In this document: one piece after another, positions 2,123-63,649 of the stretch | How positions within the stretch are numbered: the first letter of the stretch is position 1 | Layout: each line of letters starts with the position of its first letter | Sequence record: PV467749.1 | Reading direction: 5' to 3' (one strand) | Origin: a phage | DNA: 64,000 nt | The notes under the pieces: generated by a model | The model's input: only the letters and a program-made list of their open reading frames with translations | Databases searched by the model: none | What the model was told of the DNA's origin: nothing | Made by a program: the position numbers and the translations under genes

Positions 2123-2190
2123 TACTATGCCAGTACTTGATACTGGCTTTTTTTTGATTAAATATAGTATAATGAATAAAGGAGGGAATT
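2123..2190 (+). promoter_or_regulatory. array cassette: terminator + promoter + SD
   Basis: gccagta-cttga-tactggc 2129-2147 + T8; TAAATA 2159-2164, TATAAT 2168-2173, aaaggaggg 2178-2186. Confidence 0.7.
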
Positions 2191-4510: not shown

Positions 4511-4581
4511 TAATAGGTCAGTACTCAAGTACTGGCTTTTCTTTTTGATTAAATATAGTATAATGAATAAAGGAGGGAATT
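4511..4581 (+). promoter_or_regulatory. array cassette: terminator + promoter + SD
   Basis: gtcagtactcaagtactggc 4517-4536 + T-run; same promoter/SD string. Confidence 0.7.
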
Positions 4582-5763: not shown

Positions 5764-5837
5764 ATGATACCAGTACTGAAATACGTACTGGTATTTTTTT
5801 GTAAATACATTATAATTATTATATGGAGATTTTAGTT
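5764..5837 (+). promoter_or_regulatory. variant array cassette: terminator + promoter + SD
   Basis: accagtac-tgaaatac-gtactggt 5769-5792 + T7; gtaaatacattataat; ggag before ATG 5838. Confidence 0.65.
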
Positions 5838-6968: not shown

Positions 6969-6978
6969 GGAGAGAAAT

Positions 6979-8181: not shown

Positions 8182-8189
8182 GAGGAATT

Positions 8190-9299: not shown

Positions 9300-9369
9300 C
9301 ATAATGCCAGTACAGAGTACTGGCTTTTCTTTTTGGTTAAATATAGTATAATGAATAAAGGAGGGAATT
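9300..9369 (+). promoter_or_regulatory. array cassette: terminator + promoter + SD
   Basis: gccagtacagagtactggc 9306-9324 + T-run; ggttaaatatagtataatgaataaaggaggg. Confidence 0.7.
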
Positions 9370-10539
9370 ATGTTACCTTTTGCAAGAATGGTTAAGTACG
9401 GGAATATTGCACCTGTTCGCCCTGAAATAAAGAAATTGGATGGTAGTCAATCACATGTCGGATTACTATATAGTACTGGTAATATGTATATGCGTGGTTC
9501 TGGTTCGAACTACCAGTTAGGTACAGGTGATGCTAGTGATGTATTAGATGGTTGGGTACATGTACCCTATGAAGTTGATGATTTTTGGGCGTGTGTGTTC
9601 GGTACATTAATAAAGACTAAAGACAATAAGTTATATTGTGCAGGACTATCAATGGGTGGATATTTTGGTGCTAGTGGTTCATATGTTAACTGGACTGAAG
9701 TAACTTCATTATTTGTGGGTATTAACGTCTCACAAATAAAGAATATAGAATTTACATCAGCGAATACTTCCGGTAGTACACTAATATTGATGTTAGATGG
9801 TAGTTTATATGGGTTCGGCATGAACAGTAGATCAGAGTTAGGTGTTACAAACAAAGTCGTATCTCCTATTCTTATAGATACTGGGGTAAGTTCAATAGGA
9901 GCACATAAATTAGGTGGTTCATCGTTCCATTATATAAAAGACGGTAAGTACTACAGATGTGGAACATCGGTTGGTCGTAATATTGGGATTTCTTCTTTGA
10001 CTACTTTTACTGAATTGAGTATTCCTGATAACGTTATATCTATGCAAATATTATATGACAACGTACAGTTATTATGTTTAGGAAGTTCTGGATATAGTAT
10101 CTATATGGCTGGTTCGAATAATTATGGTGGAAGAGGTGTTGATGGTAGTACTATTTACTCTACATTCAGGAAAATAGATCTTACTGGATTTGGTGTTGTT
10201 CCCAGTGAAATACTATTTGAAAATGCAGGGAATGGTTATGTTAATATATCAACTGATAGTACTGGCATATATACATGTGGTGGTGGTGCTGGTGTTAATG
10301 GTTTAGGTAGACCGAGTAATGTGATATCAAGTTCACAGTTGGGTTTGATTGAGTTCAGTACAGGATTATACCCAGCAAATATAAGTCGTGTATTTTCACA
10401 GAGTTCATCTTCTGTTATATATTGTATAGTTAATAATGAATTGTACTGGGCTGGGAGTAATTCATATTTTACTGATCAAACTACAAATACTGGTACACAA
10501 TTTTCATTTATTAAGATGAAGGATATGCCTTCTGCTTAG
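9370..10539 (+). CDS. RCC1-like repeat protein, array member 9 (VKYGN subtype)
   Basis: MLPFARMVKYGNIAPVRP; GSGSNYQLGTGD, GMNSRSELGV. Confidence 0.85.
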   Translation: MLPFARMVKYGNIAPVRPEIKKLDGSQSHVGLLYSTGNMYMRGSGSNYQLGTGDASDVLDGWVHVPYEVDDFWACVFGTLIKTKDNKLYCAGLSMGGYFGASGSYVNWTEVTSLFVGINVSQIKNIEFTSANTSGSTLILMLDGSLYGFGMNSRSELGVTNKVVSPILIDTGVSSIGAHKLGGSSFHYIKDGKYYRCGTSVGRNIGISSLTTFTELSIPDNVISMQILYDNVQLLCLGSSGYSIYMAGSNNYGGRGVDGSTIYSTFRKIDLTGFGVVPSEILFENAGNGYVNISTDSTGIYTCGGGAGVNGLGRPSNVISSSQLGLIEFSTGLYPANISRVFSQSSSSVIYCIVNNELYWAGSNSYFTDQTTNTGTQFSFIKMKDMPSA

Positions 10540-10612
10540 ATTTTATGCCAGTACTTGATACTGGCTTTTCTTTTTTGTATTAAATATAGTATAATGAATA
10601 AAGGAGGGAATT
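10540..10612 (+). promoter_or_regulatory. array cassette: terminator + promoter + SD
   Basis: gccagtacttgatactggc 10547-10565 + T-run; canonical promoter/SD string. Confidence 0.7.
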
Positions 10613-11792
10613 ATGTTACCTTTTGTTAGATTATTTGATTATGGGAATATTGCCCCTGTCAAAGATACTGTTGTTAAAATTAATAGTGATGAAAATTCAA
10701 TAAGCGTATTATACAGTGATGGGTCATTATATATGCGTGGACGGAAACCAATCAGCAAAAATGGGAGTTACTGGTTCATCTTTTTTGGATAGATGGGTTT
10801 TATGTCCTTATAGTGTTGATGATTTCTGGAGTTCTCTATATTGTACTATAATTAGAACAAAACAAGGGGAATTGTACTATAGTGGGACTAACTCAGTTTT
10901 TGGTATATCATCTTCGGTTTCAACATGGACTCGTTGTGAATCATATTTTGGATCTATTTCTCCGAGTTCAATAAAAGATATAAAAATAACATCATCAACC
11001 GGAACTAACAATTCCATGTTAATACTAACAAGTGACGGGCAGTTATATGGTATAGGCATGAATGGTGCAAGTGAATTGGGTACAGCAACTGCACCAATTA
11101 CATCTCCACTCTTAATTGACACTAGTGTATCTGCAATTGCATCTAGTGAAATGAGCAGAAACTTTCACTATATAAAAGATGGTATATATTATCGTTGTGG
11201 TGAGAATACTTTTTATCAATTAGGAACCGGTGATAATAAGCCTATTACTAGTTTTACTGCATTGAATCTTGGTAGTTCTCATGTAATTGCAGTACAAGCT
11301 ACACGATGGGTAACACGTTTGATTGTTCAAAGTAGTACATCTGCTTTGTCTTTAATGGCGGCTGGTTGGAACACACAGTTGACTATAGGTGGTTCTGAAA
11401 ATACTGGTATAATAAGGTCATCATTTACTACCAATCCCTATACCGATATAACAGCAAATTCATTCGATAAACTTTCACCAGTATCCTATGTTAATGCAAT
11501 AAAATCCAGTACTAACATTATTAATACGAATGGTAAGGGATATAATTCTAATGGTGCTGGTTTAGGCCGCAACGCAGTCTCTGGGAATTATGGTTCAATA
11601 TTACCAATAGAATTCTTTGATGATAGTGTTGACTTATCACATGTTGAGTGGTTTGGTACGATTGGTAATGGTTCAGTATCGGTAGTTAGTATAGGTGAGG
11701 ATTTATACTGGACTGGAAACCCTGGGTATTTTACTGAACAAGGTGAGACTGGATATATATATAAATTCAAAAAGTGCGTTCCTTTTAGATAA
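10613..11792 (+). pseudogene. RCC1-like array member 10, frame disrupted near nt 10739-10743
   Basis: ATG 10613 gives MLPFVRLFDYGNIAPVKD...SLYMRG and then hits a stop at 10790. The homologous continuation (GNQSAKMGVTGSSFLDRWVLCPYSVDDFW, compare member 9) is in the +1 frame, i.e. ORF 10716..11792. Confidence 0.7.
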
Positions 11793-11863
11793 ACACAATG
11801 CCAGTACTTGAGTACTGGCATTCTTTTTGATTAAATATAGTATAATGAATAAAGGAGGGAAAT
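11793..11863 (+). promoter_or_regulatory. array cassette: terminator + promoter + SD
   Basis: gccagtacttgagtactggc 11800-11819 + T-run; canonical string. Confidence 0.7.
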
Positions 11864-13042
11864 ATGTTACCTTTTGTTAGAATGTTTGATTATGGAAATA
11901 TTACACCTGGTGTACCAACACCAAAAGATTTCTTTTTGGATGTATCATCTGGCAAACCTACTATGTTGATGCTTTTGGATAACGGCGAAGTATGGGGTTG
12001 TAGTAATGATGGACAACTATTAGGTTTAAACACTACCGCGTCAGCATACGGTAAGCCATACTTTGTTATGGAAAATGTTAAGTTAATGTTCGCGTCAGTG
12101 TGGGGGACATTACTTATCACTAACGATAATAAAGTGAAGTACACTGGCAGACAAACCATGTTTAATGGTTCATCAAATTATTGGAGTACTTTTCAAGATT
12201 TTACAACGAAGTACACTGCTGTTGGTATTGACATAAGTACTATAGAAAAAGTTGGATTCAATACTGGTACATTATTCCTACGCACAACTAATGGTGATTT
12301 ATGGGGTCATGGAAATAACGCTAATGGTTATTTCGGAAAAGGAAATACCGTGGCGAATTACACACCAACCAAGATCAAGACTAATACATTAGATTTTTGG
12401 TTAACTAATGGGAATGCAATTGTACAAACTGGCACTAAAGAATTCTATGCTACTGGTGATAATTATTATTATCAAATGGGTGTTACGACTACTGGTAATA
12501 TAACAACATGGACACAGATTTTTAAGGACGCTACTGATGATCCTGAGTTTGAATATAATGCAATGCGAACAAGTCAAGCAACATTAATACTTTACGGTAA
12601 AGGAACTACATTCTACGCAAGTGGGAGAAACTATATGAGTTCATGGGGTGTATCTGGAGCACCAGTGGATGTTAATACTACACTATATAAAGGTACGTTA
12701 CCATTTGTACCCGGTGATTTAACATATTTTTATGCTGGTCGAGAACAAGCATATTGGACTAACTTAATCATTGATACTAATGGAGTTCTGTACATATCTG
12801 GAACAAAAGATGGGGGTGGTGGTTCAAATGCACCTATATTTGAAGTATTACCGACCCCAAGTAGTGCAGTTGGGTTCAAATGTGGCACAGCAACACGTTC
12901 TTATGCTATAATGGATTGTACTGGCAATCAATTTATGTACGCACGTGGTACAGCTTTGTCAGACCCTGCTGGCTTTACACCAATGAGTACACCATTAAAT
13001 CATACATGGACACACATAACAGATTTTAAATTTAACCGATAA
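11864..13042 (+). CDS. RCC1-like repeat protein, array member 11
   Basis: MLPFVRMFDYGN; GNNANGYFGKGN, GDNYYYQMGV. Confidence 0.85.
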   Translation: MLPFVRMFDYGNITPGVPTPKDFFLDVSSGKPTMLMLLDNGEVWGCSNDGQLLGLNTTASAYGKPYFVMENVKLMFASVWGTLLITNDNKVKYTGRQTMFNGSSNYWSTFQDFTTKYTAVGIDISTIEKVGFNTGTLFLRTTNGDLWGHGNNANGYFGKGNTVANYTPTKIKTNTLDFWLTNGNAIVQTGTKEFYATGDNYYYQMGVTTTGNITTWTQIFKDATDDPEFEYNAMRTSQATLILYGKGTTFYASGRNYMSSWGVSGAPVDVNTTLYKGTLPFVPGDLTYFYAGREQAYWTNLIIDTNGVLYISGTKDGGGGSNAPIFEVLPTPSSAVGFKCGTATRSYAIMDCTGNQFMYARGTALSDPAGFTPMSTPLNHTWTHITDFKFNR

Positions 13043-13112
13043 TATTATGCCAGTACTTGATACTGGCATTTCTTTTTGTATTAAATATAGTATAATGAAT
13101 AAAGGAGGAAAT
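13043..13112 (+). promoter_or_regulatory. array cassette: terminator + promoter + SD
   Basis: gccagtacttgatactggc 13049-13067 + T-run; canonical string. Confidence 0.7.
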
Positions 13113-14288
13113 ATGTTACCTTTTGCAAGAATGGTTAAGTACGGAAACAGAGTTCCAGCACCTTCAGGTGTTATGAAGATAAGTACATCTCCATCACATA
13201 TGGGTATGTTATTTGATAGTGGTAACTTATATCTACGTGGAAATGGTGCACACTATATGCTAGGAAATAATAGCACTGCGTATGTGCAAAATGGGTGGGT
13301 ACAGTGTCCATATAAAGTTTCTAATGTTTGGTGCTTCTTTGCAGCAACAATTATACTTACGACTGACGGAGAATTTTACTTAGCTGGTCAAATGGGTTAT
13401 GTCGGTGTATCTGCATCACCAGTTCCTGGATGGACTAATATCACATCTTTATTGTCTACAATACCAGCACTTACTACAGTAGTAGATATAGCTGCTACTG
13501 AAACTACTGCATCAAATGGTGCGTTATTGATTTTGTTAAGTAATGGGGACTTATATGGGATTGGGCGTAATACAGGAGGTGCATTGGGTGTTACTGGTAG
13601 AAAAACAACGCCAATTCAGATTGCTACTGGGGTTACTATAATTGCGGGAACAACGGCTGGGGATGCTTTCCATTATGTTAAAAATAATCAATACTACAGA
13701 TGTGGGAATAACGCAAGTTACAACTTAGGATCAGGTTCTTCTAACCTTTCGACATTTACGGTAAGTACTGATATATCGGGAACAGTTATTGGTATTTCAT
13801 GTACTACATTAACGACTTCAGTACTTACATCTAATAGAAATAATATTAATGTATATACGGCTGGAAAAAACACTGATTATTGTTTAGGAATAGGGTATGG
13901 CGACACTACTAGTATCATGAGTCCATTTAGTGCCACTCCCGCAATTAGTGGTATTATACCAGATGCTGGGTCGATGAACAATCACAGTTTGAATTATTTT
14001 ATAATGGCAATGACACAGAATGGTAAACTTTATACATGTGGTAGTGGTGTTCCTCTTGGTTGGCCTGTTACTACTGCATCAGAAAGATCTTATTACCACC
14101 AGGTACAATATGAGGATATGGATGTTGCACCAGATGTTAATGCATTTTCAGTTCAAGGTGGTTCTGGTGTGTTATACGCGTTAGTGGGGACTAATGAGGT
14201 GTACTGGTGTGGTAACGGGTCTATGTTTCAGGAACAGAGTCCAGGTACACAACAAGTTAAAATGAAGAAAATGATTTTACCAGAATAA
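13113..14288 (+). CDS. RCC1-like repeat protein, array member 12 (VKYGN subtype)
   Basis: MLPFARMVKYGNRVPAP at Met23 of ORF 13047; GRNTGGALGV, GNNASYNLGSG; C-term KKMILPE. Confidence 0.85.
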   Translation: MLPFARMVKYGNRVPAPSGVMKISTSPSHMGMLFDSGNLYLRGNGAHYMLGNNSTAYVQNGWVQCPYKVSNVWCFFAATIILTTDGEFYLAGQMGYVGVSASPVPGWTNITSLLSTIPALTTVVDIAATETTASNGALLILLSNGDLYGIGRNTGGALGVTGRKTTPIQIATGVTIIAGTTAGDAFHYVKNNQYYRCGNNASYNLGSGSSNLSTFTVSTDISGTVIGISCTTLTTSVLTSNRNNINVYTAGKNTDYCLGIGYGDTTSIMSPFSATPAISGIIPDAGSMNNHSLNYFIMAMTQNGKLYTCGSGVPLGWPVTTASERSYYHQVQYEDMDVAPDVNAFSVQGGSGVLYALVGTNEVYWCGNGSMFQEQSPGTQQVKMKKMILPE

Positions 14289-14367
14289 AATGTGAAATAC
14301 AATGCATGTACTCAGTACTGGCTTTTCTTTTTTATTAAATATAGTATAATGAATAAAGGAGGGAAAT
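14289..14367 (+). promoter_or_regulatory. array cassette with degenerate hairpin
   Basis: gcatgtactcagtactggc 14303-14321 (two mismatches in the stem) + T-run; canonical promoter/SD. Confidence 0.55.
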
Positions 14368-15717
14368 ATGTTACCTTTTGTTAGAATGTTTGATTATGGG
14401 AATACAGTAGATGTTCCAACTGTAAAGAAATTCGACTCCATTGGTATGGGTCATGATAGGAATGGTGGTGGTAATTGGTTTGGTGCAATATTAGCATCAA
14501 ATGGAAATTTATATGGTATTGGTCAAACAAAATATGTTTCTTTTGGTATAACACCAACCAATGGTACAGGAATTGAATTAGTACGAAAAAATGTAAACAA
14601 TTTTTGGCTACTATCAAATGGAATAATAGTTAAAGATAATGATGGTTCATATCATTTTTGTGGTGTATATGCAAATGGAATATTCACACATTCAAGTATA
14701 ACTACAGCACCTTTTATAACAAATGGTTTTATAAATGTATCTTCTTATTTTTCTAACGTAGGTGAAGTTGTGGAAATGGTATTCTGTGGTGGATATGATA
14801 AAGGTCCAGCAACATCATTAACCCCAGCATACACTTCAAAATATAGTTGTATTTTGGCAGCATTGAACACTAATGGTGAAATCTGGTATATGGGTTTGTC
14901 GATACAAGGTTTAATAAACAACTCCACATCAGATTACTACTTTACTTCTTTTACTAAAGATAATCAATTGACACAAAAAGCAGTTTCATTAAGATGCACA
15001 ATAGACATGTCACATAATAATGTGTATTTTGTTGGTAATAGACCTGTACTTTATGCCAAATTAGAAGATGGTACAATCGTAGGCAAGGGATATAATATAC
15101 GATATGGTATACAAAAACCAGCTAGTACAAACCAAGTGATTAAAACGTGGACTACAGTGGCTGTAATCGGAACAGCAGATGATTTTGATGCAACAAACGA
15201 AGGCATGATGTACTGCTCAAATTCACAACTATATCGCTGTGGTAATGGTGGTGGTTTTTCTTTCTGGAATGGTACAAGTAGTGTGTATTATATGGGCTAC
15301 AACGTTGGTATGTTTCTAATCGGTGCGAATGACGTCAACCGTGTAGCGGGTGGTTTTAACGTCCTAACTACAGGGATTAAAGATGATGTAGGTATAAATG
15401 TACCAACTTCATCCAGTACCAAAATACGAATGAACTACTGTGGAACTGTAATTTTTGAACCCGGAACAACATCAATATATAAAGCACATGGTGTTTATAG
15501 TGATTACTATGCTAGTCCTTCATGGCAAGCGGGAGCAGTCGCTTCATTTACATATGAAGACATTGGTATTAAAATCAAAGATGCTATGTATGTTGGTGGT
15601 ACTCTTGGGTTTACAACATATGGATTATTAGTGGTTAGTACTGAAGGTAAGGTATATTGGAGAGGTGTGTACAACGGTGTAACATATAAAACACTCACAG
15701 AAATACATTTGTTGTAA
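14368..15717 (+). CDS. divergent propeller-like protein, array member 13 (449 aa)
   Basis: MLPFVRMFDYGN start. The body is poorly RCC1-like; membership rests on the N-terminus and the cassette. Confidence 0.75.
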   Translation: MLPFVRMFDYGNTVDVPTVKKFDSIGMGHDRNGGGNWFGAILASNGNLYGIGQTKYVSFGITPTNGTGIELVRKNVNNFWLLSNGIIVKDNDGSYHFCGVYANGIFTHSSITTAPFITNGFINVSSYFSNVGEVVEMVFCGGYDKGPATSLTPAYTSKYSCILAALNTNGEIWYMGLSIQGLINNSTSDYYFTSFTKDNQLTQKAVSLRCTIDMSHNNVYFVGNRPVLYAKLEDGTIVGKGYNIRYGIQKPASTNQVIKTWTTVAVIGTADDFDATNEGMMYCSNSQLYRCGNGGGFSFWNGTSSVYYMGYNVGMFLIGANDVNRVAGGFNVLTTGIKDDVGINVPTSSSTKIRMNYCGTVIFEPGTTSIYKAHGVYSDYYASPSWQAGAVASFTYEDIGIKIKDAMYVGGTLGFTTYGLLVVSTEGKVYWRGVYNGVTYKTLTEIHLL

Positions 15718-15787
15718 TATAGTGCCAGTACTCTGTACTGGCTTTTCTTTTTGTATTAAATATAGTATAATGAATAAAGGAGGAATT
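15718..15787 (+). promoter_or_regulatory. array cassette: terminator + promoter + SD
   Basis: gccagtactctgtactggc 15723-15741 + T-run; canonical string. Confidence 0.7.
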
Positions 15788-16939
15788 ATGTTACCTTTTG
15801 CAAGAATGGTTAAGTACGGGAATATTTCACCTGTTCCTGCAACACCAACTATAAAAGATTTTAAGATTGGTTTTACCCATGAAGTGTTATTGGACAGTGC
15901 AGGTGATGTGTGGGGTATTGGATATAATACCGCTGGACAGTTGGGATTTCTGGATGCTAACACAAATTCAATAGGAATGTGGTCTAAGATACATGAGAAT
16001 GTTAGATTAATTGGCGTTACTGCCAAATATACTGTAGTTGTTACAAATGATAATAGAATACTTTACGCCGGAAATAACTTAATTTCTAGTACTACAACGC
16101 TTGGGTGGAACGATATAACGTCCAGTATGGGAGAGGTTGCAGTGGATAGTATAGATACATTATATTGCACAGATGGAATGATGCATATTAAAACTGCTGA
16201 TGGCTCTTTATATGCATATGGACGTAATATGAACGCGAACGCTGGAGTTACAGGCGTTTCTGGCGTTATTAGTGTTGCAACTAAAGTTAATGGTTTACCA
16301 TCGGCAGTGAAGGATATACGATATACGTTTAGTTATGGTTCAGTACTATGCCAATTTGATACCACTTCGGTATATGGATGGGGAAGAAATGTCAATGGTG
16401 AATTAGGTCAGGGGAATGCAGCCGCAGTTCCTGCCCCATACCTATTGGCGGGAGCTTCTATTGTTATAGGTACTTCTTATAATGCTACTGCCATTGTTTC
16501 TGGTACTGGAACGTTAGTTACATGTGGTGGACAAAATAATGGTCAGTTAGGTAATGGTATTACTACTGCTGGTAATGTATACATATATGGTGCTAGGTCA
16601 TACCCTGGCGATCTTAATAATATAAGAAGTCCAGTAGATTGTAGTACAACTTATACTTCCGCATTTATGAGTACAGATGGTATATATTACACGGGTTCGA
16701 ACCGAAGTGTTTTTGGTGGTGCGAGTGGTTCTGCTACTGTTGCATTATATACTAAATGTAGTGATTTGCCAATATTATATTCCAATATAACTCAGTGGGG
16801 TAGTGGTACTATTGGTGGGGCGATATGTAGCAGAACTGAATTATATCAGTGTGGTACAGGTAGATACATTGCCGGAGATGGACAGAACGCAACTAGGTAT
16901 GGGTTTAGAAAGACACCATTACCTTGGGATGTTTATTGA
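15788..16939 (+). CDS. RCC1-like repeat protein, array member 14 (VKYGN subtype)
   Basis: MLPFARMVKYGNISPVP at ATG 15788; GRNVNGELGQGN, GQNNGQLGNG (best RCC1 match in the array). Confidence 0.9.
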   Translation: MLPFARMVKYGNISPVPATPTIKDFKIGFTHEVLLDSAGDVWGIGYNTAGQLGFLDANTNSIGMWSKIHENVRLIGVTAKYTVVVTNDNRILYAGNNLISSTTTLGWNDITSSMGEVAVDSIDTLYCTDGMMHIKTADGSLYAYGRNMNANAGVTGVSGVISVATKVNGLPSAVKDIRYTFSYGSVLCQFDTTSVYGWGRNVNGELGQGNAAAVPAPYLLAGASIVIGTSYNATAIVSGTGTLVTCGGQNNGQLGNGITTAGNVYIYGARSYPGDLNNIRSPVDCSTTYTSAFMSTDGIYYTGSNRSVFGGASGSATVALYTKCSDLPILYSNITQWGSGTIGGAICSRTELYQCGTGRYIAGDGQNATRYGFRKTPLPWDVY

Positions 16940-16945
16940 AATAAT

Positions 16946-16965
16946 GCCAGTACTCAAGTACTGGC
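16946..16965. terminator. bidirectional hairpin between convergent genes
   Basis: gccagtac-tcaa-gtactggc, A-rich before and T-run after. Confidence 0.7.
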
Positions 16966-16972
16966 ATTTCTT

Positions 16973-17623
16973 TTACATATTATATAATGTGAATGCAGTC
17001 ACTTTACCAGTTGTTGTTAGTTCATTATAAAGATACTCCAAGATTCTCGCACACTCTAAGTATATCTCGATATCATCATGAATAAGTGAGTACTGAAATA
17101 GCTGTTCTTCAGGTAATTTGTATTGACTTCCTTTTAATGAATTGAGAATATCTTTCACATCATCAAGTACTGGGTAAAGTACGAAATCTTCATCATATTT
17201 TGAAGCAATAAATTCAAATCCACCACCATCAGTACTAGATATACCAATCAGTACTTTATCAATCAAGTTAATGTTTATATAACGGTTGTGATTTGGGTGA
17301 ATTGAAATCTCAAACATACGAGTACTGTTACAATCAACATCAATATACAAATATACATCATTGAATTTATAAGTTAAACAACCGTACTCAAGAAAATCAG
17401 AACAAATAATTGATGAGTTTTTTCTTGTCTCTGCGTAATGCATCTTGATATTCTTTTCACGCATAAGTAATTCGAACTTTGCACTAAACTTGCCACCAGC
17501 AAGATAGTTAGTATTAGGACGTTTGTAACTTGCAACTGGTCGGTGGGATGATGTAAAGTATTTTTTTGTGAATCGTTTCTGTTTAGTGAAATATTCTTGA
17601 TAGAACTTACTTCTTTTATTCAT
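16973..17623 (-). CDS. hypothetical protein, EE-x-FQ family member inserted in the array on the opposite strand
   Basis: 216 aa ORF; C-terminal PEEQLFQYSLIHDD motif shared with 10 other ORFs in the window. Confidence 0.75.
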   Translation of the reverse strand: MNKRSKFYQEYFTKQKRFTKKYFTSSHRPVASYKRPNTNYLAGGKFSAKFELLMREKNIKMHYAETRKNSSIICSDFLEYGCLTYKFNDVYLYIDVDCNSTRMFEISIHPNHNRYININLIDKVLIGISSTDGGGFEFIASKYDEDFVLYPVLDDVKDILNSLKGSQYKLPEEQLFQYSLIHDDIEIYLECARILEYLYNELTTTGKVTAFTLYNM

Positions 17624-17700
17624 GAGTACCTCAATTAAATCGCTGTAAAATTGTACATTATAAAATGATTAAATAAAGTATAACACAAGGAGATTTTATC
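17624..17700. promoter_or_regulatory. divergent promoter region
   Basis: The + side has gattaaataaagtataac + aaggag before ATG 17701. The minus side has ttttataat upstream of ATG 17623. Confidence 0.5.
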
Positions 17701-18825
17701 ATGTTACCTTTCGTATTGTTATTTGATTATGGGAACGAAAAACAAGAAAGTTCTTATGATGTTAGTGTATATGGAAACAATAACTACATTTTAAATAAAC
17801 AAACTGGAAACCTTTTTGCATCCGGTGCTGCGGCATTCATGGGTGATAACACAGTTAAGTATTATATTACCCAAATAGAATCAAATGTTCATAGCTGTGA
17901 GATAGGTTTCCTATCATCATGGATAATTAAGAAGGACAAAACTGTTTTCATTTTAGGAAACAAAAGCAGTATAGGATTAACTGGTTCGACAACATCATGG
18001 TTCGAAATTACAAATTTATTTTCTGCTGTTCCTGAAATATGGGACAACCTATTTGAATGTAAAGTTCAATTGGGATATAACTGTATACGTGTTATGACAC
18101 CACTAGGATCAATCTATGCGATTGGTACAAACACTTATGGTGCATTGGGTACTGGTACTACATCCTCATCAACTTCGTTCGTTAAAAGTGGTGCTGTGGA
18201 TGCTGTACGCATGGAATCAACAGAACGTTCAGTGTTCTATCAAAACAGTTCTGGACAATGGTTTGGATGTGGTGATAACACATATGGTATACTAGGTCTA
18301 GGAACTACCGCGAGTCGTGTAAACTCATACACCGCACCAGTATGGACTAATGCAGAAGCTGTTAGCTTCTCTAACCGTGGGATCATATACAGCCTCAATG
18401 GTACTCTATACTCATGTGGTGACAAAGTTAATGGTCAGCTAGGGGATGGATATACACAAAGCATAGACGCTGCCAGGAGCACACCATACACCATAGGAAC
18501 CGCATTCCAAATTGGTAAGGCAATAACATCAGCTACACAAGCATCAGCCAACGTATTCATTGGTAAAGATAATAAGTTCTATGGTACTGGTAGTATTGCT
18601 GCTGGTATAAATGGTAGTACTAGTGCTGCATTAAGTAAAGTTACTGCGTTATCAGCAGCACTACCACCTGACATTACATACAATGATATTATAACATTTA
18701 ATACAGGGACCGTAACTTTTATTCAAGCAAAAGGACAACTATATTATGTTGGTAGAAGAACTTACATAGATAATAGTTCAGACGTTACCACACAGTTCAG
18801 TGTAATTGGTGGCTTAGATAATTAA
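17701..18825 (+). CDS. RCC1-like repeat protein, array member 15/16 (last)
   Basis: MLPFVLLFDYGN; GTNTYGALGTGT, GDNTYGILGLGT, GDKVNGQLGDG. Confidence 0.85.
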   Translation: MLPFVLLFDYGNEKQESSYDVSVYGNNNYILNKQTGNLFASGAAAFMGDNTVKYYITQIESNVHSCEIGFLSSWIIKKDKTVFILGNKSSIGLTGSTTSWFEITNLFSAVPEIWDNLFECKVQLGYNCIRVMTPLGSIYAIGTNTYGALGTGTTSSSTSFVKSGAVDAVRMESTERSVFYQNSSGQWFGCGDNTYGILGLGTTASRVNSYTAPVWTNAEAVSFSNRGIIYSLNGTLYSCGDKVNGQLGDGYTQSIDAARSTPYTIGTAFQIGKAITSATQASANVFIGKDNKFYGTGSIAAGINGSTSAALSKVTALSAALPPDITYNDIITFNTGTVTFIQAKGQLYYVGRRTYIDNSSDVTTQFSVIGGLDN

Positions 18826-22170: not shown

Positions 22171-22203
22171 ATTATAGCAAAAAGGGCTGACCGAAGTCAA
22201 CCC
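22171..22203 (-). terminator. fused terminator/promoter module copy 1
   Basis: gggctgaccgaagtcaaccc 22184-22203 (minus sense GGGTTGAC-UUCG-GTCAGCCC + T5). TTGACT lies in the stem, then an 18-nt spacer and TATAAT (22171-22176). Confidence 0.7.
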
Positions 22204-26792: not shown

Positions 26793-26825
26793 ATTATAGC
26801 AAAAAGGGCCGACCGAAGTCAACCC
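26793..26825 (-). terminator. fused terminator/promoter module copy 2
   Basis: gggccgaccgaagtcaaccc 26806-26825; gattatagc (TATAAT on the minus strand) 18 nt from the stem TTGACT. Confidence 0.7.
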
Positions 26826-27516: not shown

Positions 27517-29028
27517 TTATTTTTTATCCTTTCCAACACCACGGTCGTACTCTTTGAATGAGTTATCAAGTGTAGTTAGTGCATACTCATATGCTTCTGG
27601 TGATTCAATGTCAACATCATCTGCACCATTTACTAAATCAGCCCAAGCCTTTTGAAGTTTACGAGCATTGTTACCAACATTATCTTTAATCCAACTAATA
27701 TTTTTGTTGATACTTTTACTATCAGCACCTGCTTTTTTACCAATCTCGGATATCCACATCATTAACTTTTGAAGTTCATGAATTGATTTATCAGTCATTT
27801 CAAGATGTTCTTCTTCCATACCGTCAGAATCAGATGAACCAACGTCAATTCCATGTTTAGCTAATAGTTTACCAAGTTCAAAGAATGCAGCTTCAGCAGG
27901 GAAGTCATAACCTTTGTCTTTGTAGTTATTCCATGCACTATCAAACTCGTCAACAAAACGGTTAGCATAATCTGGATTTTTAACTAATGCTTTATATACT
28001 GCCATTGCATGTTCAAAACCTTCTTTATCTGACCCAAACTCTTCCATCTCAGGACGATGAATATATCCATCCATATCAACGGTATCAGGTAGATCTTCTT
28101 GTTCAGGTTCTACATCTTTCTGTTCAACTGCACCTTCTTCATCTGCACGCTTTAGATAACCATCTGGTGTTACCTTCTCACCATGTTCTGCTTCATACTT
28201 TTTCATAGTGTTGAATGCAGCATCCATAGCTGTTACGAAGCGACTTTTCTCACCTTGTACATAAGATTTAAGTGCACTGTTAACTGCATCTGATACGAGC
28301 TTAACCTTATCGTCTTTACCTTCTAAACGGTTTTCAAGTTTAGCCAGTACATTCTTGATTTGCTGGGCATTAGCACGGTCTGCTTTACCAATACTATCAA
28401 AAGTTTTAAGAATACCATCAAGACTTGCTTCACCCTGTTCAGGTTCTTTCGAATCTTCTTTGTGTGTACCTTCAAGTGCACGCATGATAGTACTGAATAC
28501 TTCAGTGGGTTCAGTACTCTTATTACCTTTCATTGCATCAAGTACAGCTTGTGCTTTACCTTTGAGTTCTTCTTTAGGAACTGCCTGTAGTGCTTTGACA
28601 ATACCCTGAATCAACTGTGGTTTGTTAGCAAAGATCTTACCTAAGTTATCAGATAACTCTTTAACAGGGTTAGCTGCTTTAGGAGCTTCTGGTTTTGGTT
28701 CTTCTTTAGGAACTGCTTGTTCTTTCTCAGCACGTTCCATATCAGCAAGGCGTTGTTTCTGTGTTGCGTTAAGAAGACCTAATGAGTTAACATAACGTAG
28801 CTTTTCTAGCTCAGTCATGTTCTCAGTACTCTTAACTTCACCTGCTTCTGCGTTTGCCTTACCAGCTAAACCTGTCCCTTGATTACGTGAACCACGTGAC
28901 CCCTGTCCTGCTTGGTAGCTATTTTGACGACGATTGCGTTCACTCCATTTATCAGAGTGACCTGCCATGTTCCCGCCATTTTTATCAGTAAATTGACCTG
29001 GCATTTGATTTCTCTCCATAGATTTCAT
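27517..29028 (-). CDS. large acidic/K-E-rich hypothetical protein (503 aa)
   Basis: Longest ORF of the early block; segments LRYVNSLGLLNATQ and ...IVKALQAVPKEELKGKA are paralogous to ORF 29861-30259. Confidence 0.7.
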   Translation of the reverse strand: MKSMERNQMPGQFTDKNGGNMAGHSDKWSERNRRQNSYQAGQGSRGSRNQGTGLAGKANAEAGEVKSTENMTELEKLRYVNSLGLLNATQKQRLADMERAEKEQAVPKEEPKPEAPKAANPVKELSDNLGKIFANKPQLIQGIVKALQAVPKEELKGKAQAVLDAMKGNKSTEPTEVFSTIMRALEGTHKEDSKEPEQGEASLDGILKTFDSIGKADRANAQQIKNVLAKLENRLEGKDDKVKLVSDAVNSALKSYVQGEKSRFVTAMDAAFNTMKKYEAEHGEKVTPDGYLKRADEEGAVEQKDVEPEQEDLPDTVDMDGYIHRPEMEEFGSDKEGFEHAMAVYKALVKNPDYANRFVDEFDSAWNNYKDKGYDFPAEAAFFELGKLLAKHGIDVGSSDSDGMEEEHLEMTDKSIHELQKLMMWISEIGKKAGADSKSINKNISWIKDNVGNNARKLQKAWADLVNGADDVDIESPEAYEYALTTLDNSFKEYDRGVGKDKK

Positions 29029-29069
29029 ATTGTTTATTCTCTATGACTATATTTATAGTATAAAGAAAA

Positions 29070-29787: not shown

Positions 29788-29847
29788 AATTTAATACCTC
29801 ACGTTGTTTGTATTTTGTATCACTTGATGAAAATATTATACGACAAA

Positions 29848-29868
29848 GGGCTGACTGAAGTCAACCCC
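29848..29868 (-). terminator. fused terminator/promoter module copy 5 (variant loop)
   Basis: gggctgactgaagtcaacccc; cgtataat on the minus strand downstream. Confidence 0.6.
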
Positions 29869-33427: not shown

Positions 33428-33461
33428 TAATTATAACAAAAAAGGCTGACCGAAGTCAACC
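33428..33461 (-). terminator. fused terminator/promoter module copy 6
   Basis: ggctgaccgaagtcaacc 33444-33461; aattataac (TTATAAT on the minus strand). Confidence 0.65.
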
Positions 33462-40933: not shown

Positions 40934-41566
40934 TAGATATTCCTCGATGGTTAATCATCCATCTCTTCGAGATGTCTGTTCGCTTCTAATACTACGTATT
41001 CTACGCGAATGAATCATAACTGTCAAGGACTTTTAATATTGACGGGATTTGAGGAAGGGATTTTTCTTCCCCCCGCACGGAGGGAAATTTGACGCTGATG
41101 GTATCAGAGCTATTGCATTGAAGATTACTCATAACGAGTGCGAAAGCGGGTCATCCTGTTTCTCTCTACTTCAGTTTCATATGACGGTCTACACTTTTAA
41201 ACATAGTGTATCTTCATTAAGTATCTATGCAATCAAATACTTAATGTGAGTACTCAAATTTTGGACGCAACTTTCCTGTACAAAATTCGATAACTCTCCC
41301 TTAGATAATTCGTAAGGTGTTATCCTTATATGTCTATCGAGGAACCACCAGCTATCCTAACGTGGTTCTTTATACAGCCGCATTGCCGTGAGGGGTTCAA
41401 ACTATGCCCACATCTAACGGGTTTCTTTTGCTGTTCGCTACAATGAAAAGCTCATCTATCCTTTACATTTTCAAGTGAAGTAGGGGAAGATTGTCAGTAC
41501 CAGTACTGTCATTGTGATTGTACATAGATCATTGTATCACCATTAATAAATTTGTCCCATAAAAAA
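40934..41566. other. long non-coding, hairpin-rich region (candidate structured RNA or cis element)
   Basis: About 630 nt with no credible ORF on either strand and local GC enrichment. Stems include cattaagtat/atacttaatg (10 bp), gaaccac/gtggttc, tacac/gtgta and a GAAA-loop hairpin. Confidence 0.4.
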
Positions 41567-41567
41567 A

Positions 41568-41586
41568 GGCTGACCGAAGTCAACCC
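41568..41586 (-). terminator. fused terminator module copy 7
   Basis: ggctgaccgaagtcaaccc flanked by A7 / T3, directly after the sigma gene stop. Confidence 0.7.
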
Positions 41587-41593
41587 TTTAATC

Positions 41594-42559
41594 TTAAAAA
41601 TCTTCGAACTCATAACCTTTTGTCTTAACCATCTTACGCAGTCGTTCCATTGCTTCAGAGTACTTACGGTGCAATGAAGAACGAGCAGTCATGACCTTAC
41701 CCTTCTCATCTTCAAAACCACTCTCAATGATTTCTCGTAGCGTTTCTGGTTCAGAATAAGAACCAATACCATGTACACGTTCAATCAATTCACGGTCTTT
41801 GGCAGATAGGTTACTCATCATTTCTGCAATACTTTGTACCAGTGGGGTACTGACAGTTTCTACGCCTAAGTTGTAATCAGGTTCAACTGAAGTAACAATG
41901 TCAGATAATGTACTTTCTGAATCATTACTCATTTTCATATTCAATGCTACATAAGTGTTATTGTAAGTTAGACAATTCTTAACGTGTTGAATCTCAATAC
42001 CAGTCTCTTTTGACACCATCTCAGGAGTTGGGTATTTACCATGTTTCCTTTGATACTCTTCTACACAACGTTTCACATAAATGTTATTAACACTCATATA
42101 ACGTGGGAAATGCACTAGATAATTAGCATCCGCACTTTCGTTATAGATTGTCATGTACACAGTTGTTGTTGCATATGTAATGAACTTAACATTTTTGGTA
42201 GTGTCGAACGTATGAATTGCTCGCATTAAACCTTCAACACCATAAGAAATCTTATCTTCAAATGGGATAAAACATGTACACTTACGTGCAACACTTACTA
42301 CCATTGGATAGTTGTAGCGAACCAAAAGGTCAATGTTCTTTTCAACGTCAATACCATCACGCACTGCTTGGATGAGCATTTCATTCGTTATCCCTTTAGG
42401 GCGAGTTAAGCTGATACCTGTTTTTGGTTTCTCAAACTTGTGACCGTCATGTTCTTCTTCTTCGACGGAATCAAGAGCCTCTAATACGTTGACTTCTTCA
42501 CTAGCAAAACACTCATCCAGTACTTCTTCAGAAATTGCATTTAAATCAAGCTTTTTCAC
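41594..42559 (-). CDS. sigma70-family RNA polymerase sigma factor
   Basis: Region 2-like YGVEGLMRAIHTFDTTKNVKFITYATTTVYMTIYN; region 4-like LSAKDRELIERVHGIG...TLREI...ARSSLHRKYSEAMERLRKM; GTG start with ggag SD. Confidence 0.75.
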   Translation of the reverse strand: MKKLDLNAISEEVLDECFASEEVNVLEALDSVEEEEHDGHKFEKPKTGISLTRPKGITNEMLIQAVRDGIDVEKNIDLLVRYNYPMVVSVARKCTCFIPFEDKISYGVEGLMRAIHTFDTTKNVKFITYATTTVYMTIYNESADANYLVHFPRYMSVNNIYVKRCVEEYQRKHGKYPTPEMVSKETGIEIQHVKNCLTYNNTYVALNMKMSNDSESTLSDIVTSVEPDYNLGVETVSTPLVQSIAEMMSNLSAKDRELIERVHGIGSYSEPETLREIIESGFEDEKGKVMTARSSLHRKYSEAMERLRKMVKTKGYEFEDF

Positions 42560-42581
42560 TTACTTCTCCTAATGAATGAAA

Positions 42582-43079
42582 TCAAAAACGGTATACATTA
42601 ATATTATCATCGGTATAGATATCATGGTTATGAACATCCATGAAGGTATCAAATACCTTATCAAGAAGAGTATTATACTCTTCATGTACTGCTGCATCAA
42701 GCATGTATTCACCACCACTACCCATAAAGAATGTATAATCATTATGGAGATAATCAATCTTCTTGGTAAACTTACCCTTATTAACGATTAAGTGAATGAT
42801 GTAATCTTTTGACACAAGAACACAGTGACAACTCGCCTTGCGGTCTGGTATCACAGTCTCTTGTGAAATCAAGTATCTCAGTACTTTGTTAATTTCACTA
42901 ACTTCACCGCAAGCACTAAACAGTCGGTCGTGTACATACAATGTTTTTTGTGAAACTACACCATAACTAAGTTTTGGTTTCAACGGGAATAGGTTCAAAA
43001 ATGAACGTTGCTCAGTTGATGTCACTTTTGAATCAGTAAGTAATACTCCCAAGCGTTTATCAATATAAACAGTCGTCAT
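42582..43079 (-). CDS. HslV/proteasome-beta-like Ntn peptidase candidate
   Basis: MTTVYIDKRLGVLLTDS (compare HslV MTTIVSV...GDG), FMGSGGEYMLDAAV (compare HslV IGSGG.YA.AAA), 165 aa. Confidence 0.5.
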   Translation of the reverse strand: MTTVYIDKRLGVLLTDSKVTSTEQRSFLNLFPLKPKLSYGVVSQKTLYVHDRLFSACGEVSEINKVLRYLISQETVIPDRKASCHCVLVSKDYIIHLIVNKGKFTKKIDYLHNDYTFFMGSGGEYMLDAAVHEEYNTLLDKVFDTFMDVHNHDIYTDDNINVYRF

Positions 43080-43766: not shown

Positions 43767-43840
43767 AATGTTTTCCTTTTTAGCTGATAATTAAATTAGG
43801 AGCACATTGTACTCCATGTTATTGGTTAAGTCAAATACTT

Positions 43841-47333: not shown

Positions 47334-48491
47334 ATGTCAAGATCGATTGCTGCTGCTGGACAATATAAGTTCGGTGAATGTGGATATGTAGTCGATGGTG
47401 CAATTCTCAACGATGGGACTAAACTCAAAAATGTTCGAATCTATCGTCAGAGAAGCCATAGATTATATGATTTACTTGATCCTGTAAGTAATGTAATTTA
47501 TCGTAAAGTACAAATTACAACAAAGGATATACAAGGATATCAATTAAACTACAACAAAACTAATGACCAAATCCTAAGTGAAATAAGAAAGAACTCTTTT
47601 TTCGTAAGAGGATACTCAGATGCTAAACTTGAATCAGATCCTACTGGGTTTGTTTATAAGTTTCTTTTGCACAAAACAATTCTAGGTAGTTCACAAACAC
47701 TATATAATATGTACACCCCTGAATGCGGGATTATAGATAGAGATATAGACAACATCCTTATGTTCCCAACGTTCGTAGGTGATGATTTGGTAGGTGGTCG
47801 CCTATTCAACGCAGGTTCAGCCATTGATACAACTGGAATGCGTATTACCGTTATACTTCCTGACGGAACCGAGTACTTCACAACTGAAATAATTGATGAT
47901 GTTTTTAGTATTCCAGTTGATCCAATTACTCAATCCGGTAAAGGAGCCATCATACTCACATCTGACATATATAATACCAAAACTATTGAATTTGATATAC
48001 TAGAAAGCGGCGAAGATATTGACTTCGTTACTTCAGTACTTCTATCTCAGTTTGAGTACACGTCCGATGGTATGTACATGGCAACTGTACCAGCTACTGT
48101 GCATGAGCGTGGTGAGTATCTTGCTCTACAAGCATACAGTGGTGATTTATTCCAAATTGGAGTAGACCTCATTGTAGATCCTAGCGGTAATATTACTGTG
48201 TACCAAACTGATGATGCTCCAATCTCATTGAGTATTATTGGTAAAACCTTACACACCACTCCATATCACAACACGTATACTGATAGTGATTGGGTAGATG
48301 ATGGTGATTCTATGTACACACTGTCCATTCCTGCCAGTGAACATGGTAAAATCCTCCCACAAGTTCAAGTCTATGCTGAAGACAATCACGTTGTACTAAG
48401 TGAAGTTGAACTCGATGCAGATGATAATGTTGTATTAAAAGTTGTTGAACCATTTGGCTGTACTGTAGTCATTGTTGGTTATAACGCATAA
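47334..48491 (+). CDS. hypothetical protein with internal duplicated beta-rich module (possible virion protein)
   Basis: The only + strand gene outside the array. Upstream aataaatacgttataat + ggaggg resembles the array promoter. DGMYMATVPATVHERGEYLALQAY and DSMYTLSIPASEHGKILPQVQVY form an internal repeat. Confidence 0.7.
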   Translation: MSRSIAAAGQYKFGECGYVVDGAILNDGTKLKNVRIYRQRSHRLYDLLDPVSNVIYRKVQITTKDIQGYQLNYNKTNDQILSEIRKNSFFVRGYSDAKLESDPTGFVYKFLLHKTILGSSQTLYNMYTPECGIIDRDIDNILMFPTFVGDDLVGGRLFNAGSAIDTTGMRITVILPDGTEYFTTEIIDDVFSIPVDPITQSGKGAIILTSDIYNTKTIEFDILESGEDIDFVTSVLLSQFEYTSDGMYMATVPATVHERGEYLALQAYSGDLFQIGVDLIVDPSGNITVYQTDDAPISLSIIGKTLHTTPYHNTYTDSDWVDDGDSMYTLSIPASEHGKILPQVQVYAEDNHVVLSEVELDADDNVVLKVVEPFGCTVVIVGYNA

Positions 48492-60151: not shown

Positions 60152-60333
60152 CTTATTTTGTCCATGACTGCTATACTAAAATATGTACCAAAATCATCAC
60201 AATTGATGATGTTGTTATAGTACTCGATTGGGTTACGCAATGATATATACAATTCAAGCTTAAAATAGTATATATCTGCTGCATTTATATTATAGTGTAG
60301 ATTAAACCACTCATCAAATGTCTTAGGCTGCAT
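60148..60333 (-). CDS. hypothetical small protein (possibly a distant MTHEEW relative)
   Basis: MQPKTFDEWFNLHYN... Confidence 0.5.
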   Translation of the reverse strand: MQPKTFDEWFNLHYNINAADIYYFKLELYISLRNPIEYYNNIINCDDFGTYFSIAVMDKIR

Positions 60334-60727
60334 TATATTTATCTTTATAAAAATCCATGATTTTAGTCAACAGTACTGCAATCGTATAATCTAAATCAGG
60401 ATAAAGTAAATTGTACTGAAATTCTTCCTCTACACTATAGTTTGTGGTGCAGTACTGATAGTCTTTATAACCAATGGAAAAATGGTTAGGATACAATGTA
60501 CAACGAAAACGATATGCTTCATCTGTCATATAATCATTGTATTCAACACAGAAGTATAGTGATTTGGCATTTAATTCAATAAGCTCAACGAAACCATCAG
60601 GTAATGAATGGTTATAAATTACTGAATCTTCATTAAACCATTCATAGTATTTTTCCAAAAAATCACTAATGGATACATCCAGACTTTGTATAGGTGGAGT
60701 AATGACAATTTGAACTTCGTTATTCAT
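60323..60727 (-). CDS. hypothetical protein, EE-x-FQ family
   Basis: SVEEEFQYNLLYPD. Confidence 0.65.
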   Translation of the reverse strand: MNNEVQIVITPPIQSLDVSISDFLEKYYEWFNEDSVIYNHSLPDGFVELIELNAKSLYFCVEYNDYMTDEAYRFRCTLYPNHFSIGYKDYQYCTTNYSVEEEFQYNLLYPDLDYTIAVLLTKIMDFYKDKYNAA

Positions 60728-61212
60728 TTCGACCCCTTACTATATTTCACGTATGGGCTATCATACAGATCATAACTTTTTTGTGCACGTTCTTTTCGGC
60801 GTTCATACATGATTCTATCATACTCTTTAGCTTTCTGATTTGCTTCATTATACAATTTTAAAATTAGCAAAAATGCATCAAGATCGGGATAGTTTGCTGG
60901 ATTGATAGTACTCAGCATAAATCGTTCTTCTTCAGTTCTAGCTAAGTCAAATTCATACTTAATAGTTTTATACCCACTCCATTTATATATATGCGTTACT
61001 TTATTAGTAAGTACATTATATTCAACGAAGTCAGTACTACCATCAAGTACACGAGTAATCTTAATAGATGTACCAATGACAATCTGTACAGAACTCATTT
61101 CTGAAGTTTTAAAGTAAAAAATGTTATTACGGCGAAGATTAACTTCTCGATCTCCAATGCGAACATGCTTAATAACTTCCATTAATGGTTCTGGGACACC
61201 ACGAATCGGCAT
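60724..61212 (-). CDS. hypothetical protein, EE-x-FQ family
   Basis: RTEEERFMLSTINP; start moved to MPIRGVP (gagga SD). Confidence 0.6.
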   Translation of the reverse strand: MPIRGVPEPLMEVIKHVRIGDREVNLRRNNIFYFKTSEMSSVQIVIGTSIKITRVLDGSTDFVEYNVLTNKVTHIYKWSGYKTIKYEFDLARTEEERFMLSTINPANYPDLDAFLLILKLYNEANQKAKEYDRIMYERRKERAQKSYDLYDSPYVKYSKGSK

Positions 61213-63532: not shown

Positions 63533-63649
63533 TTTTAATACCCTTTTATTTCTTTTTTATGAAAAACCCTCATCATTGAGGAATGGTTTGCATTTTTACA
63601 TCTGCCGATAATATACATTATATCATGCTTTTCAGCGTTGTCCCAAAAA

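Follow-up and report, generated by a model that had tools for sequence, protein, structure and literature searches.

Which promoters does the sigma factor encoded at positions 41594..42559 of phage record PV467749.1 serve, and does its gene form part of a transcriptional switch? The stretch of DNA analyzed here (64,000 nucleotides, hereafter the window) carries at this locus a 321-aa ORF on the minus strand, listed with a GTG start. An earlier note had read the ORF as a phage sigma70-family factor, placed it among genes driven by host-type promoters, and fitted it into a sigma-switch cascade together with a distinct promoter class, lacking a -35 element, said to precede all plus strand genes. 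That observation was the correct identification of an already annotated gene, and the cascade is plausible in outline, with its target promoters mis-assigned. We conclude that the factor probably retargets host RNA polymerase, most likely to a promoter class other than the one first proposed.

A full-length sigma factor with a divergent domain 4

ORF 41594..42559 is a full-length sigma-70-family protein with domains 2, 3, and 4, and is preceded by a Shine-Dalgarno sequence (AGGAG, 42566..42570, minus strand) located 6 nt 5' of the GTG. Matches in Pfam, PHROG, NCBIfam, and the PDB agree on this identity, and the region 2-like and region 4-like segments quoted in the earlier note are both present in the translation. 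The sole PHROG match at E <= 0.1 was PHROG 351, "RNA polymerase sigma factor" (E 3.8e-48). The nearest cellular relatives are group 1/2 sigmas, including the RpoD C-terminal domain (2.5e-27), Mtb SigB (2.6e-17), and RpoS (NCBIfam, PDB). However, the scores fall far under the NCBIfam equivalog/subfamily cut-offs (RpoD_Cterm, 96 bits versus 354; rpoS_proteo, 81.8 versus 378.7). Judged by its sequence, the protein is almost certainly a functional sigma.

Domain boundaries were drawn from a 16-member family alignment, Pfam, hhalign, and an AlphaFold model that took the 16-sequence alignment as input (mean pLDDT 66.6; 78-89 over most of regions 2-4). The alignment and pLDDT delimit an N-terminal region (aa 1-58; 42386..42559, minus strand) that is acidic, as first noted: residues 1-50 contain 15 Asp/Glu versus 5 Lys. 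The motif MKKLDLNxIxEEVLDECF is conserved there, with L6, L14, D15, and F18 invariant, and pLDDT is low except for a short helix at residues 11-18. Domain 2 (aa ~59-146; 42122..42385, minus strand) comprises a partial region 1.2 and regions 2.1-2.4, with modeled helices at 59-67, 72-93, 100-117, and 126-145; the Pfam region 1.2 family (PF00140) gave no match to the ORF. Sigma70_r2 (PF04542) matched residues 79-141 (E 2.6e-9, 37.2 bits versus a cut-off of 24) and Sigma70_r3 (PF04539) matched residues 162-224 (E 1.3e-11, 44.9 bits versus a cut-off of 25.3), so that significant sigma-domain hits, whose absence the earlier note had made its point of refutation, are indeed present. Domain 3 (aa ~153-224; 41888..42103, minus strand), defined by Pfam Sigma70_r3, the family alignment, and hhalign, carries the invariant motif PRYMSV where region 3.0 falls.

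The earlier note had proposed Pfam Sigma70_r2 and Sigma70_r4 as a check. Region 2 was recovered, whereas Sigma70_r4 (PF04545) gave no match to the ORF. Region 4 is nevertheless present in divergent form (aa ~240-313; 41621..41842, minus strand), since a profile of the last 86 residues, built from 11 family members, matches domain 4 of RpoS (6fi7, E 2.1e-5); in addition, full-length alignments to RpoS and Mtb SigB extend to the C-terminus. The model places helices at 253-263, 274-279, and 293-313, with pLDDT of 79-86 across residues 251-310. Between the two helices of the helix-turn-helix lies a conserved insertion of ~9 aa, G-F/Y-x-D-x-x-G-K, modeled as a small hairpin (pLDDT ~83). Residues G281, D284, G287, and H297 of region 4 are invariant in the family. 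Among PDB structures, the closest folds are those of sigmaS and SigA chains within holoenzymes, led by sigmaS 5ipl_F (Foldseek E 1.1e-11; 240-270 aligned columns); the TM-score of 0.36 is low, which reflects a domain arrangement in the free model unlike that in the holoenzyme.

A clade restricted to RaK2-like jumbo phages

At the DNA level, the window matches Escherichia phages WPEC5 and WPEC3 with 99.6% identity and fEgEco12 with 99.5%. These phages are Asteriusvirus-like jumbo myoviruses of 350-385 kb, and most records already annotate an "RNA polymerase sigma factor." By tblastn, full-length orthologues occur in 95 phage records spanning all RaK2-like genera (98-100% query coverage). Protein identity over the full length is 59% to the PBECO4/121Q type, even though the flanking DNA is ~96% identical, and drops to 39% for RaK2/K64-1, 37% for GAP32/CBB, 33-34% for BF/Yen9-04, and 31% for XaC1. 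Large protein collections hold few members (17 clusters at 90% identity), with ~19 full-length representatives before the continuum of cellular sigmas begins. The ORF shares the marks of this group, namely full-length similarity, the N-terminal MKKLDLN..LDECF motif, and the region 4 insertion. These comparisons place the sigma in a small clade that is confined to the RaK2-like jumbo phages.

Orthologues such as fEgEco12 Gp519, WPEC5 CDS0184, 121Q gp167, PBECO4 gp356, RaK2 ORF244, that of GAP32, and CBB_513 represent the same gene in the same early-region context, with no difference of substance apart from the divergence of the window's subgroup from PBECO4/121Q. The CBB paper describes CBB_513 as having regions 2-4 and lying inside the predicted early region (PMC5259590). 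Iyer et al. report that group 2 jumbo phages carry a "complete RpoD-like" sigma along with a minimal gp55-like sigma (PMC7824862), and the fEgEco12, Sharanji, and EJP2 papers merely mention the gene. A literature search found no experiment on the function of any orthologue. The sigma gene is already known and adds nothing new by its existence; the question of interest is what it recognizes.

Retained and replaced specificity residues

Alignment to E. coli RpoD by hhalign (probability 99%) places phage residues 78-277 onto sigma70 378-576, with region 2 aligned to RpoD 378-457; the alignment ends at residue 277, before the region 4 insertion. The pocket for -11A and its neighbors are kept (sigma70/phage: F419/F118, E420/D119, R423/K122, F427/F126, T429/T128, and Y430/Y129). 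Core-binding positions D403/D102, G408, G411, L412, and M413 are likewise kept, whereas Q406, E407, and N409 are changed. The W433/W434 dyad of region 2.3 is replaced by T132/T133, and these positions are S, T, A, or V across the clade. Other changed specificity positions are Q437M, T440Y, H455 (Y154), and E458 (V157). Recognition of TGnTATAAT by the phage sigma is not guaranteed, because other residues stand in place of W433/W434 and of H455/E458, which contact the extended -10 in sigma70.

For region 4, helix periodicity suggests that the recognition helix A-R-S-S-L-H-R-K-Y corresponds to sigma70 T583-E591. This mapping would imply that R584 is kept, while E585 becomes S, R588 becomes H, and Q589 becomes R; the H at the mapped R588 position is invariant in the 16-member alignment. 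Although cellular group 1/2 sigmas (the RpoD C-terminal half, RpoS, and Mtb SigB) match best in both sequence and fold across regions 2.1-4.2, the phage protein differs from them in its sub-cut-off scores, the WW to TT replacement, the missing Pfam region 1.2 and region 4 matches, the insertion within the helix-turn-helix, and a family-specific acidic N-terminus.

An early operon under host-type promoters

Short ORFs on the minus strand surround the sigma gene, and consensus host-type promoters are frequent in this block. The sequence TTGAC[AT]-N16-18-TA[TC]AAT occurs 17 times in the window, always on the minus strand, versus 0.70 expected, bearing out the earlier placement of the gene among host-type promoters. 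A looser consensus scan returned 59 sites in total versus 62.9 expected by chance, so near-perfect matches alone are informative. TH47, an unannotated 352-kb relative, was assembled and subjected to gene calling, and 250 of its upstream regions were surveyed. The same host-type pattern occurs there at 48 sites (3.1 expected), 47 of them on the minus strand.

Four packed ORFs run from 43766 to 41594 with gaps of at most 22 nt, and the sigma gene is the last. A Pfam search of the neighboring operon genes gave no match. The nearest host-type promoter 5' of this operon, TTGACT-17-TACAAT (43806..43834, minus strand), is the probable driver of all four genes. Directly 3' of the sigma stop codon is an intrinsic terminator consisting of the hairpin GGGTTGAC-TTCG-GTCAGCC followed by T7 (41561..41589, minus strand); the hairpin is repeated at least six more times within the window. 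Early expression of the sigma gene is suggested by the 17 host-type promoters, by the promoter at 43834-43806, and by the location of the CBB orthologue in a predicted early region.

Class II promoters and their covariation with the region 4 helix

Listing of upstream regions led to the recognition of a second promoter class in the window's lineage, which we term class II. Its consensus, TG(G/A)GACA-N13-TGnTA(T/C)AAT, combines a -35-type box with an extended -10 element. Class II sites number 17 in TH47 (0.1 expected), all on the minus strand and all in gene orientation. The window contains two exact sites versus 0.00 expected, plus two with one mismatch. The first exact site, GGGACA-N13-TGATACAAT (41531..41558, minus strand), is found 3' of the sigma gene terminator, and the second, GGGACA-N13-TGATATAAT, is at 63617..63644 (minus strand).

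A "divergent RpoD-like" class of equal spacing and architecture, with the box TG(A/G)AA(C/T)(G/A), is given for CBB in Table S6 of PMC5259590. The CBB form TGAAACG-N14-20-TATA had no match in the window, and TGAAACG alone occurred at chance frequency (7 versus 6.9). Judged by these counts, the window's lineage uses a class II box other than that of CBB. The gp55-like sigma gene (see below) is preceded by a class II site both in TH47 (268233-268206) and in CBB (Porf_244, PMC5259590).

The class II box, which sits at canonical -35 spacing, appears to vary with the sigma. Asteriusvirus and 7t3-like phages combine the region 4 helix R-x-S-L/I-H-R with the box G(G/A)GACA, while CBB, GAP32, BF, and Yen9-04 combine K-A-T-L-S-R with TG(A/G)AAC. 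This match is not mere phylogeny, because region 2 of the 7t3 sigma is nearer to CBB and BF than to Asteriusvirus. The covariation rests on about four lineages, and RaK2, a single example with a TTGAACA box and an R..H helix, fits the pairing poorly. Given that class II has a -35-type box, a full-length sigma with region 4 is better matched to this class. From these sequence relationships, the chance that the class II set constitutes the regulon of the window's sigma is about even.

A candidate structured RNA behind a class II promoter

The 660-bp gap 3' of the sigma gene contains a conserved non-coding element. The unit behind the class II promoter (41035..41524, minus strand; core from 41488 to 41038) is a candidate structured RNA of ~450 nt, with no ORF of 60 aa or more in the ORF list for that interval. 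TH47 has four paralogues, each with its own class II promoter, and every RaK2-like genus has three to five copies at ~70% nucleotide identity; the sigma protein is 34-37% identical across the same phages. In PBECO4 and RaK2, too, full-length copies directly follow the sigma gene.

RNAalifold analysis of an 11-sequence alignment yielded 65 pairs in 12 helices, of which 27 pairs show compensatory changes. In this alignment, 97.1% of cells are paired versus 41-49% in slid-partner controls, and the covariation score is 0.394 versus at most 0.119 in controls. For four of the five measures, the observed value was not attained in any of 500 shuffles. The non-coding stretch 3' of the sigma gene gave no match to Rfam 15 or in searches for tRNA and tmRNA, and a literature search found no description of the ~450-nt RNA.

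Copies also reside outside the phages. An E. coli chromosomal island holds a full-length copy behind a TGGGATG-N13-TGATATAAT promoter, and full-length copies occur at nine Enterobacterales genome loci. Where neighbors are shared among these loci, the RNA is located between a serine/tyrosine integrase and a CI-like repressor, and we read the nine loci as temperate prophages. Three of the nine copies carry a TGAAAC(A/G)-N13-TG(G/C)TATA(A/C)T promoter. No sigma homologue was found within 4 kb of the prophage copies (8-kb loci) or of the island copy.

Which sigma reads class II promoters

The class II -10 element is a near-consensus extended -10, and class II may not need the phage sigma because host sigma70 could use such an element without a -35 element. 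The TGRGACA box, if relevant, would then be the binding site of a different factor, encoded by phage or host, much like the MotA box of T4, and the phage sigma would have another or a narrow regulon. T4 middle promoters, with their MotA box, are laid out analogously to class II. The similar promoter form on prophage RNA copies that lack a nearby sigma homologue also favors this account, and AsiA homologues have been noted in some group 2 jumbo phages (PMC7824862). We nonetheless consider use by host sigma70 unlikely, in view of a box that is placed at the spacing typical of a -35 element and changes between lineages together with the region 4 helix of the sigma. Furthermore, the k-mer survey of 250 TH47 upstream regions yielded no other over-represented promoter-like motif.

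Alternatively, the phage protein could substitute for sigma70, reading the same TTGACA/TATAAT promoters and sustaining phage transcription once the host sigma has been inactivated or displaced by competition, with no new specificity. Its closest cellular relatives are group 1/2 sigmas, and the phage has many strong consensus promoters, as the TH47 count illustrates. The specificity positions differ, however (W433T, W434T, Q437M, T440Y, H455Y, and E458V), and the region 4 recognition helix and turn are remodeled around a conserved insertion. This helix varies between lineages whose early promoters all stay TTGACA-like, and we regard simple substitution as improbable.

The TAAATA late class and a gp55-like sigma

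The promoters singled out in the earlier note form a real class: TAAATA-N3-TATAAY occurs at 13 sites in the window, all on the plus strand, versus 0.17 expected. For example, one TAAATA-N3-TATAAT cassette promoter occupies 2159..2173 (plus strand), and the 12 others start at 982, 3357, 4550, 5802, 9338, 10581, 11832, 13082, 14336, 15757, 17670, and 47297 (plus strand). Every copy is preceded by a terminator hairpin and followed, at 16-31 nt, by an ATG. The class is not limited to the plus strand, because a TAAATA core (29050..29055, minus strand) precedes the minus strand gene 27517-29028, annotated as "virion structural protein" in WPEC5.

In TH47, the TAAATA core is present in 57 of 250 upstream regions versus 6.4 expected, a ~9-fold enrichment, mostly before large virion-type genes of the structural region. 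The k-mer survey of these regions identified TAAATA/ATAAATA as the genome-wide late motif, and in the late class TAAATA is followed by an AT-rich stretch; the element lies 15-60 nt 5' of the start codon and in many cases immediately follows a terminator. TATAAT is not conserved at these sites beyond recently duplicated cassettes. Two more elaborate candidates for the genome-wide motif were rejected: the bipartite TAAATA-N3-TATAAY has just 7 sites in the 352-kb TH47, and the exact T4 motif TATAAATA has just 11. We assign the cassette promoters to the TAAATA late class and read their additional identity as reflecting recent duplication of the RCC1-like cassette. An ATAAATA late class has been described for CBB and GAP32, where it was likened to the T4 late promoter TATAAATA (PMC5259590).

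A gp55-like late sigma is encoded outside the window at TH47 267309-268250. The ORF matches PHROG 12791 (E 5.9e-152), which is labeled "sigma factor for late transcription," and PHROG 234 (E 1.5e-16). The first pointer was a weak phmmer lead obtained with a T4 gp55 sequence (best E 0.072), which the PHROG matches confirmed independently. Two other gp55 leads, TH47 60177-60740 and 151641-152105, were rejected, having matched PHROGs of unknown function alone. The window's sigma does not match the gp55-type PHROGs 234 and 12791.

Although the cassette promoters hold a perfect TATAAT, are clearly distinct from the minus strand host-type promoters, and would meet a sigma that keeps the -11A pocket residues, it is unlikely that this sigma switches them on directly, given that the genome-wide shared element is TAAATA plus AT-rich sequence alone, that these promoters stand before virion genes and look like the T4 late promoter, that the lineage has its own gp55-like late sigma, and that a sigma with a conserved region 4 would find no partner element there. 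The sigma-switch cascade of the earlier note remains plausible, but its pairing with these promoters is unlikely because the late class has no -35 partner and has its own T4-like sigma.

A proposed three-sigma cascade

The combined evidence suggests the order host sigma70, window sigma, gp55-like sigma, an order favored because the box at -35 spacing tracks the region 4 helix. Host sigma70 holoenzyme would transcribe the sigma gene early, as the last gene of a short early-block operon. Its product would bind host core RNA polymerase, given that the phages encode no RNA polymerase themselves, and would redirect it to TG(G/A)GACA promoters with a 13-nt spacer and an extended -10 TGnTA(T/C)AAT. 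Class II would in turn drive scattered protein genes, the four paralogous ~450-nt RNAs, one of which is immediately 3' of the sigma gene, and the gp55-like sigma gene. The gp55-like sigma would then read TAAATA late promoters, including the plus strand promoters of the RCC1-like cassettes. For this account as a whole, in which the sigma retargets host polymerase to class II, we see the case for and against as balanced.

A broader reading is more tentative. The sigma may be the middle link of a three-sigma cascade whose remodeled region 4 reads a lineage-specific TG(G/A)GACA or TG(A/G)AAC box, with a regulon that includes uncatalogued ~450-nt RNAs present in three to five copies per jumbo genome and beside the integrase in temperate enterobacterial prophages; some chromosomal copies have the same promoter form, and infection by a jumbo phage could activate them. 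Taken jointly, these propositions are possible but rather doubtful.

Known phage systems offer parallels of role. In Bacillus phage SPO1, transcription proceeds from sigmaA through gp28, a sigma for middle genes, to gp33/34. As with gp28, the window's factor would be an early phage sigma, transcribed by the host holoenzyme, that turns host core polymerase to the class of genes expressed next, with a second phage sigma for late genes. The comparison with SPO1, a phage mentioned in PMC13401047, concerns role; the late sigma of the window's lineage is T4 gp55-like, and promoter classes are assigned here by inference. T4 gp55 is likewise a phage sigma that uses host core polymerase, and the TAAATA promoters of the window resemble its target TATAAATA. 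However, gp55-type proteins are minimal sigmas without regions 3 and 4, whereas the window's ORF belongs with PHROG 351. Among coliphages, phiEco32 / 7-11 phages encode gp36, a sigma70-family factor under which host core polymerase transcribes middle and late genes (PMC8948821 and PMC12276001). It comes from a small podovirus, and the comparison again concerns role.

Implications

Beyond the identity of the sigma gene, the analysis provides a testable three-class promoter model with coordinates, a second, gp55-like sigma, a hypothesis for box-to-helix pairing, and a neighboring RNA. This structured RNA may be the more novel object of the neighborhood. If confirmed, the cascade of RaK2-like phages would be a case in E. 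coli of successive sigmas in the manner of SPO1, and their sigmas would constitute a natural series of specificity variants linking sigma region 4 to the -35 box.

A structured RNA candidate adjoins the sigma gene

Directly 3' of the gene for the 321-aa sigma-70-family factor (window 41594-42559, minus strand), covariation and conservation delineated a structured RNA candidate of ~450 nt on the same strand (41035-41524, conserved core 41038-41488). The candidate is preceded by its own class II promoter, TG(G/A)GACA-N13-TGnTA(T/C)AAT. Compensatory changes were found in 27 of the 65 predicted pairs, and paired cells reached 97%, compared with 41-49% in slid controls. Searches against Rfam 15 and for tRNA and tmRNA returned no match to the RNA, and a literature search did not retrieve a description of it. 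RaK2-like jumbo phages carry three to five paralogues per genome. In the related 352-kb phage TH47, an additional 210-aa ORF (146553-147185, minus strand) separates the RNA from the class II promoter, at the position equivalent to window ~41525; this ORF is missing from the window and its closest relatives.

Full-length copies of the jumbo-phage RNA also occur in Enterobacterales chromosomes, including that of E. coli LR-29-1 (locus L022, 4888-5427) and nine loci on genome contigs (L026, L034, L040, L043, L045, L047, L050, L053, and L055). Where these loci share neighbors, a serine or tyrosine integrase is encoded on one side of the RNA and a CI-like repressor (S24 plus HTH) with an HTH_35 protein on the other, an arrangement suggesting that the loci are temperate prophages. 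Among the chromosomal copies, that of E. coli and three others have the class II promoter form of the jumbo phages; in the remaining copies, only TGGTATAAT is present. One locus, L053, is labeled Clostridium sp., which is probably the result of misbinning.

Repeated regulatory modules and the RCC1-like gene array

A terminator hairpin, GGTTGAC-TTCG-GTCAGCC followed by a T run, is repeated at window positions 22171-22200, 26793-26822, 29835-29864, 33430-33459, and 41561-41589. Embedded in this hairpin is a TTGACT -35 hexamer, with TGCTATAAT located 18 nt further downstream in most copies. By this arrangement of motifs, a single ~40-nt module acts as terminator and promoter in one.

The window further contains an array of ~15 paralogous RCC1/ATS1-like genes of ~375 aa on the plus strand (1-18825 and 47334-48491), annotated in the near-identical phage WPEC5 as "chromosome condensation regulator." A near-identical cassette of ~70 nt, composed of a terminator hairpin, the -35-less promoter TAAATA-N3-TATAAT, and AAGGAGG, separates most of these genes. 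Copy number and gene order differ from those in WPEC5 and TH47.

Divergence and genomic context of the sigma gene

The sigma protein of the window subgroup is only 59% identical to those of PBECO4 and 121Q, whereas the adjacent non-coding RNA region (40934-41593) shares ~96% identity with these phages. Such a disparity suggests either that the sigma allele has been exchanged or that the gene evolves much faster than its neighbor. The fEgEco12 paper lists Ecwhy_1 as lacking the sigma factor (Gp519); yet the Ecwhy_1 DNA at this gene (MH791411) is 99.4% identical to the window, and its annotation reads "similar to RNA polymerase sigma factor." The match in CMSTMSU (MH494197) is split into four pieces, with four "hypothetical protein" calls. 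Both the reported absence and the fragmentation look like annotation or frameshift artifacts.

Directly upstream, separated by 22 nt, lies an ORF (42582-43079, minus strand; protein start MTTV...) that is probably co-transcribed with the sigma gene. PHROG 1040, the family of the HslV peptidase, is a weak match (E 2.8e-6), and the annotation in fEgEco12 is HslV; a Pfam search gave no match.

Outside the window, TH47 (MT446416) encodes at 267309-268250 a gp55-like protein that matches "sigma factor for late transcription" (PHROG 12791, E 5.9e-152; PHROG 234, E 1.5e-16); a class II promoter (268233-268206) precedes the gene. Given this gene in addition to the 321-aa sigma factor, the lineage of the window has two phage sigmas.
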